Of a stretch of 64,000 bases of DNA, positions 35,133-40,885 are shown piece after piece. The first letter of the stretch is position 1. The number at the start of each line of letters is the position of its first letter. Source of the DNA: Syntrophales bacterium (GTDB lineage Bacteria; Desulfobacterota; Syntrophia; Syntrophales; UBA2210); the NCBI GenBank assembly GCA_963662405.2, contig CAXXKT010000001.1:2048001-2112000 (forward strand). Direction: 5' to 3'. The notes under the pieces are model-generated. The model was not told where the DNA came from. It searched no databases and saw only the letters and a program-made list of their open reading frames with translations. Position numbers and translations under genes: made by a program.

Positions 35133-36404
35133 TGATCTTCCCCCAGAAAAACGGACACCTAGGTTAGGGGACAACCCCGGCGTTTTCAAATGCCAGGGGG
35201 CTTCTGTACTTTAACGCAGAATGTCTGCGCGTGCGATTATAAAACAGCTCAATATAATCAAAAAGGCTCGTTCTAGCTTCCGATCGTGTTTTGTAATCCT
35301 CAAAACCAACCCACTCGGTCTTCAAAGAATGAAAGAAACTTTCCATCGGTGCGTTATCCCAACAGTTGCCTCTCCGGCTCATACTGCAGATGACACCCAA
35401 ATTGTTCAGTAGGTACTGATACGATGTCGAAGCATATTGCGCACCCTGATCGGAATGTAAAAGCACCCCCTGGATATCTCCCCGATGAGCAGCCGCCATC
35501 TTTAATGCGTCTACGGCGAGTTGTGCACTATTTCTGTCTCCCATCGACCAACCTACAATCATTCGGGAATACAGATCCATAATCGCTGACACATACAACC
35601 AGCCTTTGCGAGTGGGTCTAAAGGTCACATCGGATACCCACTTCTGATTCGGCTTCTCTGAAGAAAATATCCTTCCCAGTATGTTCTCAGCCGGTCTTTT
35701 CGTCCTCCTTGAATCGGTTGTAACGACAAAGCGCTTATGAACCTTCGATTGAATATCGGCTTTGCGCATCAAAAAAGCCACGGTGTTTCTACCGACTCTT
35801 TCGCCTTGATCAACCAACTCCCCATGAATCCGTGGCGAGCCGTATATCTTCCTGCTGGCTATATGCGCCCGCCTTATCTTCACCAGCAAATCCCGGTGTC
35901 GCTTTGTTCGTAAACTCTCCGGACGACCCAACCAACCATAATAGCCACTCCGGGATACCTCCAGAACCCGACACATCACCGCCACACTGAAATGCGTTCT
36001 CTGCGACCGAATAAACTGATACTTTACTTCAACTCGCGCGCAAAGAACGCTGCGGCTTTTTTTAAGATTTCATTCTCTTCCTTTACTTTGGCTAACTCAT
36101 GCCGTAATCGACGGGTCTCGTCCGCTGCGGTCCCGCTTGCTGGGCGTCGTCCGGATCCGGGAAACGCACCGCCACCCGCTCTATCCACCGTCTCTTTCCA
36201 CTTATACAACTGGTTCCTTCGTATCCCCAACTCACGGGCCAGTTCAGCAGGTGGCTTTTTCCCCTCGTCCATCAATCGCACTGCTTCAAGCTTAAACTCC
36301 CGGCTAAATGCCTGTCGCTTCCCTCTCATCGGACACTCCTTTCTTCTCCATTGTATACGCATCCGGATACTTTTTGAAGTGTCCGTTAAACTGGGGAAGG
36401 TTCA
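35133..36404 (-). mobile_element. IS3-family element
   Basis: TG...CA ends; IRs TGATCTTCCCCCAGAAAACGGACAC / TGAACCTTCCCCAGTTTAACGGACAC; 3-bp AGG target duplication. Confidence 0.93.
35164..36329 (-). CDS. IS3 transposase OrfAB (OrfA 36024-36329; -1 frameshift at an A-run near 36055-36063; OrfB ends at 35164)
   Basis: OrfA HTH ending LKKAAAFF; OrfB WVSDVT, HSDQGAQY, DNAPMESFF. Confidence 0.9.
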
Positions 36405-36423: not shown

Positions 36424-36803
36424 GAGTGTTCGGAAAAGATTGTAAATTAATCCGGGAAGTGTCCCTGATTTTCCCTGGTGAGGAACCGAGGCGGGCAAAG
36501 CGGTCGGAAAAGAGATTCGTAAAATAATACGGGAAGTGTCCCTAGTTTTTGCGGTAAAAAGGCAATCCCTGAAACTCCTTGACAATTTTCATAAAAGTTA
36601 TATCATCCAGCCGTTGTGTTCATTCTGACAGATGTAAAAACCTGGTTTGCTTCTTTTAACAGTTGAAAGAGGGAACTATGAACGGATACCACTAGAGCCC
36701 CGTTTCTCATACAGAGACGGGGCTTTGTGTTTGTGGGGAGCAGACGATCAGGCATCTTGGAGCGTTCTAAAAAGATTACAATTTAATACGGGAAGTGCCC
36801 CCC
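36424..36803 (+). repeat. Three direct copies of a ~40-bp unit ending TAATxCGGGAAGTG(T/C)CCC
   Basis: Cores at 36453-36465, 36530-36542 and 36789-36801, each preceded by a related AAAAGA(G)ATT...TAAT segment. Confidence 0.75.
36696..36732 (+). terminator. Intrinsic terminator of a short transcript (promoter TTGACA 36579 / TATCAT 36601)
   Basis: GAGCCCCGTTTCT-loop-AGAGACGGGGCTT followed by a T-rich tail. Confidence 0.7.
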
Positions 36804-36889
36804 CGTTTTTCGCATAGAGGAAAAGGAGGAATGATAAAAAGTCTTCATGAGCTGTGAATTGGGATACACTGTTTGAAACTTTATAGTTT

Positions 36890-37030
36890 TGGGCAGCAAG
36901 GCTACTGTTCGACATGTTTACTGGTCTTCGAGACCGCAAAGGAGAATGAAGAGCTGTAGCCGCAACATTCAATGATCTTCGAGATCGAATAGGAGATTGG
37001 GACCAATTCACCTGACAGGCGCTGTCCAAG
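36890..37030 (+). ncRNA. IS110 bridge RNA (target- and donor-binding loops); extent approximate
   Basis: Two loops closed by the hairpins GGTCT-TCG-AGACC and GATCT-TCG-AGATC; the flanking 9-nt segments match the target and donor junctions. Confidence 0.75.
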
Positions 37031-37047
37031 ATGTGAGGAGGCGTTCT

Positions 37048-38160
37048 ATGAAGATGAGTATCGGGGTTGACCTTCACAAGACGCAGTTTACCGTTTGTTG
37101 TTTGAGTGAAGATCGGAGTGTTCAGGAGTCGGGCATCTACCCGACGACTGATCGAGGTTACCGGGCATTTATCATGAAGGTGTCCAACTGGAATGAGGGC
37201 GGTTACGAGGTCACGGCAGCGGTGGAATCAACAGGGAACACCCGACACTTTCGCAACCGGTTTTTGAAGGCGGGGATTGAGGTCAAGATAGTGAACACCT
37301 TGAAATTCAAGGTTGTAAATGAGTCAGTAAAAAAGACTGACAAGCATGATTCCCGCACATTGGCTGAGTTTCTTGAGAAAGATATGCTTCCCGAGTCCAT
37401 TCTTTGTTCGCAGGAAAGCGAGGACATTCGAAGGCTTCTCAAGTCACGTTCTGTTCTGGTGAAAGCTTTGGTATCCTTGAAAAACCAGATACACGGTTTA
37501 TTGCTTGGATATGGGATAGAGAGTCGGCGGGGACAGCTGCAGAGCAAAAAAGAAAGGCAGCGAATCCTTGACGGTCTCGCGGACCATAGGAGTTACGGAA
37601 ACGCTGCCCGAGCGGTAAAACCGCTTCTTGGTACAATAGACCAAATTGCATCCGAGGTCAAAGGACTTGAGCGCGTATTATCTGATCTTGTTTCTGAAGA
37701 CGAGGATGTTGCTCTGTTGCAAACGATTCCTGGCGTTGGAATAATAACAGCAGCGACGATTCGGGCTTATACCGATGACATCAACCGATATGAGAGCGCC
37801 AAGCAGTATGCTGCTCATGCCGGTTTGGTACCATGGGTTCAAAACTCCAACAAGACCATTCGCCATGGTCATATTACCAAGCGAGGCCCCGTGGAACTGA
37901 GGACGGCTTTTGTGCAAATGGTAATGGGGATGCTACGGCTTCGGAATAAAACCGATGGATATTGGCTTATGTACAAATACAAAGCCATGAAAGAGAACAA
38001 GGGAACCGGGAAGAGCGTAATAGCGACGGCGCGAAAGATGAGCACTATTGTATATGCCATCTTGAAGAAGGGGGAGCCGTTTGATCCATCGAAAATGCTG
38101 CCAGACCCGAAATATGTAGAGATGAGTAAGGTTGCGAGGTGTTATGCTTTGGCCGTTTAA
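37048..38160 (+). CDS. IS110-family recombinase (DEDD)
   Basis: GVDLHK, AVEST, KTDKHD, TIPGVG, AGLVP..QNS; GAGGAGG RBS. Confidence 0.93.
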   Translation: MKMSIGVDLHKTQFTVCCLSEDRSVQESGIYPTTDRGYRAFIMKVSNWNEGGYEVTAAVESTGNTRHFRNRFLKAGIEVKIVNTLKFKVVNESVKKTDKHDSRTLAEFLEKDMLPESILCSQESEDIRRLLKSRSVLVKALVSLKNQIHGLLLGYGIESRRGQLQSKKERQRILDGLADHRSYGNAARAVKPLLGTIDQIASEVKGLERVLSDLVSEDEDVALLQTIPGVGIITAATIRAYTDDINRYESAKQYAAHAGLVPWVQNSNKTIRHGHITKRGPVELRTAFVQMVMGMLRLRNKTDGYWLMYKYKAMKENKGTGKSVIATARKMSTIVYAILKKGEPFDPSKMLPDPKYVEMSKVARCYALAV

Positions 38161-38220
38161 ATTTTAACCATGGGCCTGTTTGACAGGCTCTCCATGAATT
38201 GACTTTTTATAGGAGTAAAT

Positions 38221-38799
38221 ATGGCGACTACAAAATTGAGAATCGATTTGGATCAAGGAATCATTGAAGTTGAAGGTGAGGACTCCTTTGTCAAGGCGGT
38301 ATACGATGATTTCAAGGAAAGGTTATTATCCGATATGCCAGTTGAACAAAAGACTCGTACTGGCACAAAAGCTAATGCAAAAAAGAGATCCACTCCTAAG
38401 GCTAAATTGAAAACAGGAAACGCTTCTAAAAAGAAAAAGTCAAGCAAAGGAAGTGCATCTGGATCTATTGTTAAAGATCTTGATCTTTCGGGCGGGGGGA
38501 AGATTCAAAGATTGAAGGATTTTTTAGGGCAATATAAGGTTTCTTCAAATTTTGAACGAAATCTCATTTTCGTATATTACCTTCAGCATAAACTTAACAT
38601 CAAAGGTATAACCCTCGATCATATATTTACATGTTACCGTGATGTCGGCGCTAAAGTGCCTGCAGCACTTCAACAAAGCTTATGGGATACCACCAACCGA
38701 AGAGGTTGGCTTAATACTTCATCTTCTGAAAATATTCTAGTCACAGTGCCAGGCATGAACTTTATAGAGCATGACATGCCAAAATCGGGAGCTGAATAA
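38221..38799 (+). CDS. Hypothetical protein with a probable C-terminal winged helix
   Basis: 192-aa low-GC ORF with AGGAG RBS; Lys-rich linker; coupled by TAATG to the next gene. Confidence 0.75.
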   Translation: MATTKLRIDLDQGIIEVEGEDSFVKAVYDDFKERLLSDMPVEQKTRTGTKANAKKRSTPKAKLKTGNASKKKKSSKGSASGSIVKDLDLSGGGKIQRLKDFLGQYKVSSNFERNLIFVYYLQHKLNIKGITLDHIFTCYRDVGAKVPAALQQSLWDTTNRRGWLNTSSSENILVTVPGMNFIEHDMPKSGAE

Positions 38800-39569
38800 T
38801 GAATGATCAGTTAGAGGGCTTCTTGCAACAAATTCCTAATATCGGAGAACAATCATCCGCCTCATTGGTAGACTACTTCGTTTATTTTATAACTGTCATT
38901 CTGGGGGATGACACTGCCACACCTGCCGGTGTTGAGCGTTGTTTCGAGATAACCAAGATACAAAAATATTCAAATATTTCTTCTTATTTGTCTCGACAAT
39001 CAAAAAAATCCCGTGGAAAAACTGCAAAATACTTAAAATTAAAGACTGGTTACCATTTAGAACGCAACTCAGAACTCGAAATTCAAAAAAGCCTGCGCTC
39101 TGGACCCTCGAGGCAGGAAACAAGCCATTTACTCAGAGGAATGCTCCCCAAAATTAAAGATCCTAACAAAAAAGCATTTTTGCAAGAAGCTATAGATTGT
39201 TATGAAATTGGTGCAAGAAGGGCATCAATTGTCCTCACATGGATTCTAACGATCAACCACCTCTATGATTATATTATTGCGAAGGAGTTAGTTGCTTTCA
39301 ATACCGCTTTGGGGAAAAATACAGACAAGAGGATCAAGGTGTCTTCAATCACTAAGCTTGATGATTTTTCCGAGATTCCAGAAGGGAAATTTATTGAATT
39401 AATGAGGTCCGCAAATATTGTTTCTAATGATGTGAGGAAAATACTGGATGTAAAGCTCGGAATACGAAATTCCTCAGCTCACCCATCAGGGATTTCAATT
39501 TCTGAAGTCAAGGCTACTGATTTTATCATCGATCTTGTTGATAATGTAATCGCAAAATACCCGATTTGA
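38799..39569 (+). CDS. Hypothetical protein with a HEPN-like C-terminal domain (RxxxxH)
   Basis: LQEAIDCYEIGARRASIVLTW ... IRNSSAHP. Confidence 0.7.
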   Translation: MNDQLEGFLQQIPNIGEQSSASLVDYFVYFITVILGDDTATPAGVERCFEITKIQKYSNISSYLSRQSKKSRGKTAKYLKLKTGYHLERNSELEIQKSLRSGPSRQETSHLLRGMLPKIKDPNKKAFLQEAIDCYEIGARRASIVLTWILTINHLYDYIIAKELVAFNTALGKNTDKRIKVSSITKLDDFSEIPEGKFIELMRSANIVSNDVRKILDVKLGIRNSSAHPSGISISEVKATDFIIDLVDNVIAKYPI

Positions 39570-39581
39570 CGTTGCTTAAAA

Positions 39582-39634
39582 ATCTAACAATCATTTGGAG
39601 CGTATAGACCCGCCCGCTGAAAAGTACATTAGAA
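39582..39634 (+). other. attC-like site (short, degenerate)
   Basis: ATCTAACAA...TTTGGAGCG / CGCTGAAA...ATTAGAA immediately after a stop codon. Confidence 0.55.
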
Positions 39635-39664
39635 TGAGCCCACAGCCTTAATGCGAGGTGCCTT

Positions 39665-40885
39665 GTGACAAAAGACAACGAAAATGCAATTATGATAGCG
39701 GCAAATCGAGAAATGGCCGTTGCTAGTGATGTCCAGGGTTTAATGCTCCAAATTAGACCTGAGTGGCAATCAAAAAATCTTGTTCAAAGAGTAGCAAAAT
39801 TGCTACCGGTCGATCCAAGTAGTGCATGTCAAAGGCTTTTTAATGCAGCTATTCACGACATCAAAAAGAAAATATTGGTGGCAGGCATCGACATCGCTAA
39901 AGAAGCAGCCACATCAAACAGGCTTCCTCAAATAAACCGTCCAGAGGATATAGAAGAATACAATGTCTCAAAGACAATAGATCTTGCGTATTATATGGGG
40001 TTATTATCCAGGCCCGAGTGGCGAAGAATTACACGCGTATATGATATACGAAGAGATTTAGAACACGAAGATGACGAATATGAGGCAACAATTGAAGATT
40101 GTTTTTACATCTTTAAAACATCCATTGAGGCTGTGCTGGCTAAAGACCCTATTGAGGTTATCAGATTAACCGATATCAAAGAAATTGTCGAACAACCAAC
40201 CGCTGTGACATTAGACCATACCGTCAGAGAAGAATATGGTGTTGCCCCTGCCGTTCGCCAAATTGAAATATACAAATTTCTCGTATCGACAGCTCTAAAC
40301 AGTAAGCATCCCGATATTGTGCGCCAGAATTGCTATATTTCTTTGGGTGTGCTTTCTCCACTAACGAAAGACCAGGTAAAAATTGAAGTTTCTCAGTTTT
40401 ATTCCGACAAAGTTAAAAGAAATGGGTTGGACTTATTTACAGCTCGTGTGTCATTCGCAGCTGGTATTCTACCTTACTTCAAGAAAAGCATATTAAAGAC
40501 ATTCTATGCCAGCTATTTGGAACATATGAAAACTGTTGGGTATGATTTCAAGAGAAATGATAAACATGGTACCCTCCTTCGTGAATTCAGGGAAATTGGC
40601 GGGCTCGAATTCTGCCATGATGAAGTCGTTCCGGGTATGATCGAGTGGCTCTGTCAATGCTATATCGGCGAGCGGAGTTTTGGTCGTTATTCAGAAAGCA
40701 GACCCGTTTTTTACTCTAATGTTGGTGCCCCGATTTCCAAAGAAATCCTTATAGACTCAAAGCACAAAGTCTCTCCATTGATTGAAAACATTATTAAAAA
40801 GAGTCAGCCGATTCAACGAGAATGCAAATGGAAACATTGTCAAAGAAGAGCACAGGATTTGATTGATGCTATGCTTCCAGTATAA
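39665..40885 (+). CDS. Hypothetical protein with an N-terminal HEPN-like domain
   Basis: ACQRLFNAAIHDIKKK ... YDIRRDLEH (RxxxxH); GAGG RBS; low GC. Confidence 0.7.
   Translation: MTKDNENAIMIAANREMAVASDVQGLMLQIRPEWQSKNLVQRVAKLLPVDPSSACQRLFNAAIHDIKKKILVAGIDIAKEAATSNRLPQINRPEDIEEYNVSKTIDLAYYMGLLSRPEWRRITRVYDIRRDLEHEDDEYEATIEDCFYIFKTSIEAVLAKDPIEVIRLTDIKEIVEQPTAVTLDHTVREEYGVAPAVRQIEIYKFLVSTALNSKHPDIVRQNCYISLGVLSPLTKDQVKIEVSQFYSDKVKRNGLDLFTARVSFAAGILPYFKKSILKTFYASYLEHMKTVGYDFKRNDKHGTLLREFREIGGLEFCHDEVVPGMIEWLCQCYIGERSFGRYSESRPVFYSNVGAPISKEILIDSKHKVSPLIENIIKKSQPIQRECKWKHCQRRAQDLIDAMLPV

Follow-up and report, generated by a model that had tools for sequence, protein, structure and literature searches.

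A Syntrophales IS110-family element that very probably homes by bridge RNA to Shine-Dalgarno sequences upstream of start codons

We analyzed a stretch of 64,000 nucleotides (nt) from a Syntrophales bacterium (positions 2,048,001 to 2,112,000 of contig CAXXKT010000001.1, assembly GCA_963662405.2), which is referred to below as the window. It contains an IS110-family insertion sequence of 1387 bp (36829-38215, plus strand) that stands between a Shine-Dalgarno (SD) sequence and the start codon of the gene at 38221. An earlier note on this DNA had proposed that the element encodes a bridge RNA aimed at exactly this kind of site. The element has a noncoding left end of 219 nt, a transposase gene, and a right end of 55 nt. 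Its termini, GAATG... and ...AGGAG, are not inverted repeats of each other, and there is a 7-bp subterminal inverted repeat (TTTTTAT at 38204-38210 and ATAAAAA at 36834-36840). The transposase contains the Pfam domains DEDD_Tnp_IS110 (PF01548) and Transposase_20 (PF02371) and aligns with the transposases of ISCro4 and IS621 (E about 1e-18). In the alignment with ISCro4 (9t56), the motifs IGvD, vEsT, KTDkhD, and the S of vqnSnk stand opposite IGID, mEAT, KTDavD, and the S of yeSgs, where the position of the catalytic S241 was counted by hand on the published IS621 protein.

The genome (3.80 Mb in 3 contigs) carries nine copies of the element, each exactly 1387 bp between identical junctions, so that the boundaries drawn in the earlier note recur in every copy. 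Eight copies are identical, and the ninth differs at a single base. A BLAST search with the element against the genome returned these nine full copies and no partial ones. The near-identity of the nine copies points to recent movement. In the window, GAAAAGGAG/GAATGA forms the left junction, with TTTTTATAGGAG/TAAATATG at the right. Deleting 36829-38215 in silico yields GAAAAGGAGTAAATATG, which matches GCAAAGGAG at 8/9 and AGTAAACAT at 8/9. This deletion rebuilds the ribosome-binding site and start of the gene at 38221, with the agreement to each guide that had been claimed. The only sequence common to the copies at or outside their edges is AGGAG, preceded by A or T, and the empty site would therefore hold one AGGAG wherever the crossover falls inside it. 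As is typical of the IS110 family, there is no target duplication beyond a short core: AGGAG is present at both junctions, and the outer flanks differ among copies. The crossover dinucleotide within the shared AGGAG cannot be fixed by comparing junctions, and we infer that its last AG (36827-36828) is the core.

The sites occupied by the nine copies have a common layout. Every left flank ends in AAGGAG, and eight of the nine end in AAAGGAG. The right flanks begin TAAAT, TTAAA, TAATT, GAAGA, ATACA, GGAAC, AGGAC, GAGGT, and AAGGA. An ATG lies 5 to 9 nt beyond the right end in 8/9 copies, on the same strand as the transposase gene, and in 7/9 copies the downstream ATG opens an open reading frame (ORF) of 71 to 239 aa on that strand; the exceptions, copies L003 and L006, are located at or past the 3' end of open frames. 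The right end itself terminates in TATAGGAG in all nine copies. It does so in 39 related loci as well, partly by construction, given that the motif was required by the search. Examining other copies and homologs had been put forward as a check, and the nine own copies and 39 related right flanks behave alike. In the window, the coding sequence of the target gene is intact and now lies 1.39 kb from its former upstream region. Its start at 38221 is backed by metagenomic homologs (6 loci, 41-57% identity) that share the same N terminus.

A scan of species-representative genomes identified 77 loci with relatives of the element. The hosts include Spirochaetia, Treponema, Leptospira, Desulfobacterales, Desulfobulbaceae, Dehalococcoidales, Dysgonamonadaceae, Lentisphaeria, Victivallales, and Clostridia, most of them represented by metagenome-assembled genomes (MAGs), so that single host assignments may err. 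The loop-1 motif described below was present in 51 of the 77 loci, which together with the nine own copies provide 26 distinct guide sets; the other 26 loci are incomplete or too divergent for the motif pattern. Copies from Lentisphaeria (34% identity), which fall outside the motif set, lie after AAGGAG or CGGAG, and their loops contain AAAGGAG and TATAGGAG. These flanks and loops indicate that SD targeting occurs in relatives from several phyla.

To describe the predicted RNA, we used an alignment of the left end of the window copy with those of 27 relatives (28 sequences). The fold comprises an outer stem, a 5' hairpin, and a stem-closed module with loop 1, while loop 2 lies between this module and the outer stem (Table 1). 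The four loop strings named in the earlier note (ATGTTTACT, GCAAAGGAG, ACATTCAAT, and GAATAGGAG) are all where it had placed them, the first of these (36914-36922) within the loop-1 5' strand. Inside each pair of loop strands is a 13-nt hairpin, GGTCTTCGAGACC in loop 1 and GATCTTCGAGATC in loop 2. Across the 28 sequences, 21 base pairs are 97.3% paired, and 8 pairs have changes on both sides, amounting to 51 cells of the alignment. No shuffle (0/500) reached the observed percentage of pairing or the covariation score, and slid partners were 18-43% paired; because the structure came from the same alignment, these controls are biased in its favor. Compensatory changes in helix 1 fall in alignment columns 92/161, 93/160, and 95/158. 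An outer stem of 8 to 13 pairs, with differing sequences, was located in 24/28 sequences (a count with no shuffle control behind it), and in L027 the helix lies elsewhere. At the left end, GATAAAAA is invariant in the 28 sequences.

Table 1. Features of the IS110-family element and its insertion site, in window coordinates
Feature	Position	Strand	Basis or remark
Left target half GAAAAGGAG, SD of the gene at 38221	36820..36828	+	AAGGAG precedes 9/9 copies, AAAGGAG 8/9; same sense as loop-1 3' strand
IS110-family insertion sequence, 1387 bp	36829..38215	+	9 genomic copies, 8 identical, 1 with one difference
Left terminus GAATG (right donor), then ATAAAAA	36829..36840	+	G5, A6, T7, A9, A10, and A11 invariant in 28 sequences
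Left noncoding end encoding the predicted bridge RNA	36829..37047	+	Fold; 28-sequence alignment; pair counts
Outer stem, 5' strand GTGAATTGG	36854..36862	+	Pairs with 37003-37011
5' stem-loop	36869..36896	+	Fold
Target-binding loop module	36900..36961	+	Basal stem GGCTAC (36900-36905) with GTAGCC (36956-36961); helix 1
Loop-1 5' strand CATGTTTACT	36913..36922	+	Complement of AG+TAAAC+ATG (core, right target, start codon)
Loop-1 hairpin	36923..36935	+	Helix 2: GC to AU in 5 sequences, UA to CG in 7
Loop-1 3' strand GCAAAGGAG, SD guide	36936..36944	+	Same sense as left target plus core
Loop-2 5' strand ACATTCAAT	36965..36973	+	Its CATTC pairs with GAATG at the element start
Loop-2 hairpin	36974..36986	+	Helix 3: GC to AU in 13 sequences, CG to UA in 10
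Loop-2 3' strand GAATAGGAG	36987..36995	+	Same sense as right terminus ATAGGAG (left donor plus core)
Outer stem, 3' strand CCAATTCAC	37003..37011	+	Fold; helix search in relatives
SD of the transposase gene, GAGGAGG	37035..37041	+	Sequence
DEDD transposase (bridge recombinase) gene, 370 aa	37048..38160	+	PF01548, E = 8.1e-19; PF02371, E = 3.2e-20
Right end	38161..38215	+	Hairpin, TTGACT, TTTTTAT, AGGAG
Right target half TAAAT plus ATG	38216..38223	+	7/8 versus TAAACATG, above all 917 free AAAGGAG sites
Target gene, 192 aa, no Pfam family	38221..38799	+	Metagenomic homologs share the N terminus

Two other candidate guides were rejected. TTTATAG (36881-36887) sits in the loop of the 5' hairpin, and AATGA, which follows the loop-1 3' guide and was considered as a handshake guide for the first bases of the element, is constant where the start of the left end varies. 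As a separate observation, a contig from a marine sediment metagenome (run X4) tracks the left end (about 36893-36938) to the start of the loop-1 3' guide and then continues as TAAGGAGGTTATATATGAAG... At this breakpoint, the guide-encoding DNA is itself a perfect copy of the left target. The new sequence is an SD and gene start of the kind that a deletion between guide DNA and right end would leave; as a single contig, it may be an assembly artifact.

The SD half of the target is tracked by the RNA. In the relatives, the loop-1 3' strand follows the pattern G-NNN-AGGAG, and its variable bases change along with the left flank. Over flank positions -9 to -6, an average of 2.22 of 4 bases matched compared with 1.46 in shuffled pairings, a value that no shuffle attained (0/5000; 23 guide sets). 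Matching guides and flanks include GTTAAGGAG in L035 (9/9), GAGGAG in L030, GAAGGAG in L034, TAAGGAG in L010, L052, and L057, and CAAAGGAG in L012, L029, and L055. Loop 2 had been said to match the end-to-end junction, and its 5' strand does pair with the start of the element in 25/28 sequences when wobble is included: pairing with the first 5 nt is fully Watson-Crick in 22/28, depends on wobble in 3, and has one mismatch in 3. Variants of this strand and of the element start compensate for each other (GTATG/CATAC, GCATG/CATGC, and GCACG/CGTGC). The loop-2 3' strand carries ATAGGAG, which equals the right terminus and is invariant in the 28 sequences, hence uninformative for covariation. Covariation of the loop-1 3' strand with the flank, and of the loop-2 5' strand with the element start, indicates that the RNA, as bridge RNAs do, sets both the donor ends and the SD half of the target.

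Some relatives differ in their guides or flanks. In a Spirochaetia genome (G031; loci L013-L026 and L028), 9/15 left flanks read TATAGGAG, which has one base more in common with ATAGGAG of the donor loop than with TTTAGGAG of the target loop. Five flanks in this genome have a common hairpin-plus-T-rich repeat (e.g., cctgcatccatgcagg) just upstream. Meanwhile, L059, from a Leptospira MAG, is the sole relative with GGTTGAGAG as its loop-1 3' strand. Its left flank ends in TAGAG, it lacks CAT in register on the 5' strand, and there is no ATG within 18 nt downstream. L059 may be a retargeted member.

The loop-1 5' strand, which would read the start-codon half, follows the pattern TTCGN-CAT-NNNNN-NT, and in the window its complement is AG-TAAAC-ATG. 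CAT is present in 25/26 guide sets, the next 5 nt are variable, and the final T is invariant. The window flank TAAATATG matches TAAACATG at 7/8; the best of the 917 free AAAGGAG sites reaches 6/8. With both halves counted (7/7 and 7/8), the window site is the best full-guide match among the ~926 AAAGGAG sites of the genome, and the chance that the top-ranked site would be among the 9 occupied is ~0.01. The variable 5 nt of the guide resemble the 5 nt before the ATG more than shuffled pairings do (9/5000 as high), and in the register +2 to +6, 156/5000 shuffles were as high. We judge the match between guide and flank to be above chance, given the covariation of the loop strands with flanks and element ends and the top rank of the window site among ~926. 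From these results, it is weakly suggested that the loop-1 5' strand adds a preference for an A-rich spacer and ATG.

We also compared the proximity of start codons with what the genome offers. An ATG lies at +4 to +10 in 28.4% of the 917 free AAAGGAG sites, against which 8/9 copies is a significant excess (P = 2.8e-4). Should copies that land inside genes be lost, however, noncoding AAAGGAG sites would make the fair baseline (given below, with the points that weigh against our reading). Among 48 right flanks (9 own and 39 related), the first ATG is at offset 4-9 in 44, far above an assumed baseline of 56% that was measured in this one genome only (P = 7e-8). The individual offsets were 5 (9 flanks), 6 (25), 7 (5), 8 (2), and 9 (2), with one flank each at 3, 4, and 14 and two flanks with no ATG within 18 nt. 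In G031, all 15 copies have an ATG at offset 5-7, compared with at most 50 of 156 TATAGGAG sites, counts that include the element's own ends and were made with no coding mask. It is thus likely, although not proven, that true starts are favored to some degree beyond what the SD string provides, perhaps owing to the weak guide half or to selection.

We consider it very probable that this is a bridge-RNA element of the IS110 family that homes to SD sequences upstream of start codons and leaves an SD in place, with its start-codon guide acting as a weak preference. The SD half appears to be the main determinant, most copies occupying sites that match this half only, and the start-codon half would contribute a preference at most. 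The claim that the element homes to translation-initiation signals accordingly stands for the SD (AAGGAG at 9/9 copies, plus covariation), but the start-codon half is matched by the window copy only. A number of results weigh against the proposal as a whole or against its start-codon part. Outside a crude ORF-based coding mask, 155/278 (56%) AAAGGAG sites have an ATG at +4 to +10, and against this baseline 8/9 copies is a modest excess (P = 0.042). The other eight copies match TAAACATG at about 1-4/8 over +1 to +8 (flanks read by eye). The core-anchored register +1 to +5 has no covariation between guide and flank (1272/5000 shuffles as high). The ATG offset varies, with a mode of 6 versus the guide's 5 and a distribution like the genome background. 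A conserved AAUGA on the opposite strand offers a UG with which the CA of CAT can pair, and since these pairs are invariant they decide neither way. The loop-1 5' strand ends in CT, the full complement of an AG core, in 6/26 guide sets only, the others ending in AT (15), TT (4), or GT (1). Pairing of the base before the invariant T with flank position +1 was tried as an alternative and rejected, for that base does not track the flank (read by eye). Searches for independent traces of the element's activity were negative as well: neither the circle junction nor an excised allele was seen in the contigs of four sequencing runs, and positions 36500-38500 had no Rfam match at E <= 1 (Rfam 15, which may or may not include a bridge RNA model). 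We did not find an empty site when the left flank of copy L004 was searched in 30 relatives; 8/30 matched at 66-75% identity, and the downstream gene was not adjacent in the 5 loci examined. The right-flank genes of the window copy turned up in 0/30 relatives, and a metagenome scan with the protein of the gene at 38221 returned the 6 homologous loci and no empty allele.

How much of the initiation region the RNA reads is the point on which other explanations turn. It could read all 17 nt (AAAGGAG, a 5-nt spacer, and ATG) and require the start codon. Such a requirement would suit the window copy, which matches both halves and is the best site in the genome, and it agrees with the near-universal CAT in the guide sets, with L059, where the loss of CAT in register coincides with a site that has no nearby ATG, with the covariation between the variable 5 nt and the 5 nt before the ATG, and with the uniform spacing in G031. 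Yet 8/9 copies match the right half poorly, and a duplex of fixed register cannot read a distance that ranges from 3 to 14 with a mode one above that of the guide. The core-anchored register without covariation and the base before the invariant T, which does not follow the flank, speak against it too, and a helix could account for the CA of CAT. We therefore regard an obligatory start codon as unlikely. It is somewhat easier to imagine, although still doubtful, that the SD half alone is read, that proximity to starts is a by-product of where AAGGAG occurs and of the loss of intragenic copies, and that CAT is structural. More than half of the noncoding free AAAGGAG sites already have an ATG at the right distance, leaving a marginal P value for the nine copies, the spacing at occupied sites follows the genome background, and "half-match" insertion of IS621 at sites matching half of its RNA is described in the part of 10.64898/2026.08.31.748434 available to us. 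What this account leaves unexplained is the occupation of the best full-length match in the genome (chance ~0.01), the 44/48 flanks across the clade (subject to the one-genome baseline), and the significant covariation anchored on the ATG.

A further possibility is that AGGAG is a terminal repeat or target recognized by protein, that the RNA does not choose sites, and that the resemblance between loops and flanks is incidental. AGGAG is invariant and so carries no covariation signal of its own, and the clade is known from sequence alone, both of which leave some room for this idea. Positions -6 to -9, which lie outside AGGAG, nevertheless covary with the loop-1 3' strand (0/5000), the loop-2 5' strand changes in step with the element's first 5 nt, and the enzyme is homologous to the bridge recombinases of IS621 and ISCro4. 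We consider a site choice made by protein very improbable.

Under our preferred reading, in which the RNA selects the SD, the sequence suggests the following cycle. The excised circle would join ...TTTTTATAGGAG to GAATGATAAAAAG with a single AGGAG. The right end contains TTGACT (38199-38204), which resembles a -35 element, and the left end TAAAAA (36835-36840), which resembles a -10 element; as the earlier note had read, the joined ends give TTGACT, 17 nt, and TAAAAA. This junction would act as a promoter for the RNA and the transposase. The string TTGACN-T(3-6)-ATAGGAG is kept in 23/25 distinct related right ends, while the sequence upstream of it diverges. In the target, GCAAAGGAG of the loop-1 3' strand would pick the left flank, presumably by pairing with the bottom strand, and the loop-2 strands would specify the joined ends of the element, ATAGGAG and GAATG. 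Insertion would then take place directly after AAGGAG, in a single orientation and codirectional with the gene that owns the SD. Because the right end terminates in TATAGGAG, the gene would keep an AGGAG (38211-38215, core included) as its replacement SD at the original distance from the ATG. In this respect, the earlier claim that the element restores an AGGAG ribosome-binding site and leaves the coding sequence intact is borne out at the locus. Integration would cost the element its -35, so that the RNA, the transposase, and the displaced gene might all lie on one transcript from a host promoter. No terminator was predicted inside the element, the plus strand being free of terminator-like sites from the transposase stop codon to the right end, and read-through from a host promoter via the RNA and transposase into the gene is therefore possible.

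Two observations concern right ends elsewhere. In L048, the right end is tandemly doubled in the last 60 nt before the junction (...GGGTGACTTTTTATAGGAG followed by TTGAGCTCACGGTTGACTTTTTATAGGAG), as though an older right end had received a new copy behind its AGGAG. Runs X1 and X3 come from the genome's own sample; in them, contigs of 1029 and 673 nt carry roughly the last 43 nt of the right end (38175-38217) with a 2-nt gap and unrelated sequence on either side; BLAST found no such fragment in the genome.

The choice of target is not new. IS900 and IS901, both from Mycobacterium avium, use a single orientation and enter between an SD and its start codon, according to PMC2942039 (citing Doran 1997 and Inglis 2003); the element described here enters at such a place in 8/9 own copies and 44/48 right flanks. 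The target motif given for IS900 in the accessible text of PMC8141618, CATGNNNNNNTCTCCTT, corresponds to AAGGAGA-N6-CATG on the opposite strand. The IS900 transposase gene is antisense to the target gene, whereas here every copy has its transposase gene in the same direction as the ATG downstream. IS900 also has an ORF, hed, on the strand complementary to the transposase that spans the element and is said to use host signals (PMC8141618, same portion); in our element, the longest minus-strand ORFs are 63-114 aa, and none is spanning. The consulted parts of PMC2942039 and PMC8141618 do not describe a guide RNA for IS900, which we compared by description only. In the open-access literature, we found no bridge-RNA account of SD targeting, a search that subscription papers, including Doran 1997 and Inglis 2003, lay outside.

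The element resembles IS621 and ISCro4 in several ways (Durrant 2024, PMC11208160; Hiraizumi 2024, PMC11208158). The enzyme has DEDD and Tnp domains, and the bridge RNA is located upstream of the transposase gene. In the RNA, the target loop comes before the donor loop, each loop surrounds a hairpin, and the 3' ends of the guides come together at a core of 2 nt, which reads CT on one of the strands. IS621 and ISCro4 also have a promoter that spans the junction of right and left ends, for which the joined ends here contain a putative counterpart. The order of the guides is different. In each loop of IS621, the 5' strand runs in the same sense as the left flank or left donor with the core, and the 3' strand is complementary to the core and right side (PMC11208160); we checked on the IS621 sequence (Supplementary Table 1, PMC11208160) that its left target guide, ATCGGGCCT, with the sense of the left flank and the CT core, is on the 5' side of the hairpin. 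In the present element, the same-sense strand GCAAAGGAG is 3' of the hairpin and the antisense strand CATGTTTACT is 5', and the long, well-matched guide is the 3' strand. This reversed order occurs in all 51 motif-carrying related loci, and the geometry of RNA and DNA is unchanged if CT is placed on the strand that is antisense to both the RNA gene and the transposase gene. IS621 targets repetitive extragenic palindrome-like (REP-like) sequences and is not known to target SDs. The comparison of the core with that of IS621 in the earlier note thus holds for CT on one strand, but the guide order is the reverse of IS621 and equal to that of IS1111 seekRNAs.

In the IS1111 elements ISEc11, ISKpn4, and ISPa11, the complement of the top strand lies 5' of the complement of the bottom strand, the IS110 type being reversed, as stated in the excerpts of PMC11187229 that we used. 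We took "top strand" there as transposase sense, in which case what the excerpts say of the IS110-type ISEc21 agrees with IS621. For this reason, we dropped the idea that the guide order is a new mirror-image geometry: IS1111 elements had already been reported with it (Siddiquee 2024, PMC11187229). Subterminal inverted repeats, moreover, measure 7-17 bp in IS1111 and 2-3 bp in the IS110 group (PMC11208160, in the sections seen), and the 7-bp repeat here fits the former, as does the guide order, in line with the repeats of at least 7 bp in the excerpted PMC11187229. IS1111 elements differ in that the noncoding region and RNA are "usually" on the downstream side of the transposase gene (PMC11187229, same excerpts), while the RNA here is upstream, in the IS110-type position. 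We tentatively propose, as one possibility among others, that the element belongs to a clade spread across several phyla with a hybrid layout: an RNA upstream as in IS110, the guide order and 7-bp repeats of IS1111, a target loop fixed on the near-universal SD, sense entry between SD and ATG, a trailing AGGAG of its own, transcription from a host promoter, and the host gene as last cistron. The text passages of bridge-RNA and seekRNA papers that we searched, figures and most supplements excluded, contained no description of such a hybrid layout.

Other features surround the element. Just upstream, on the minus strand at 35164-36362, is an IS3-family element with ORFs for HTH_Tnp_1 (112 aa) and HTH_21 plus rve (273 aa) proteins. 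A terminator-like hairpin (36693-36727) stands between it and the SD used by the IS110-family element. At the left junction (36827-36853), the host SD and GA are followed by ATG ATA AAA AGT CTT CAT GAG CTG TGA, a frame of 8 codons. The SD spacing of 2 nt is very short, and the ATG is missing where the left ends of relatives begin GCACG, GAGCG, or GTCTG; the frame is probably not functional. Downstream (38221-40885), three ORFs of 192, 256, and 406 aa have no Pfam family, and their DNA was found in 0/30 related genomes, so that the segment looks like an accessory island.

Our results offer a legible RNA explanation for the 1997 observation that some IS110-family elements aim at translation-initiation signals, and they suggest that the habit of targeting SDs is widespread outside mycobacteria. 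A guide that spells an SD would find hundreds of sites in any SD-using genome (~926 AAAGGAG sites here), at which the orientation to transcription is fixed, and the trailing AGGAG should limit damage to the host gene. If the proposed clade is real, SD targeting would be a low-cost "safe harbour," which would explain its spread across phyla. For the engineering of bridge recombinases, the relatives offer natural variation in a mixed IS110/IS1111 layout with a long 3'-strand guide, and mismatches in the other half-site seem to be tolerated, which is relevant to off-target rules. For annotation, genes that lie behind such elements may still be expressed.

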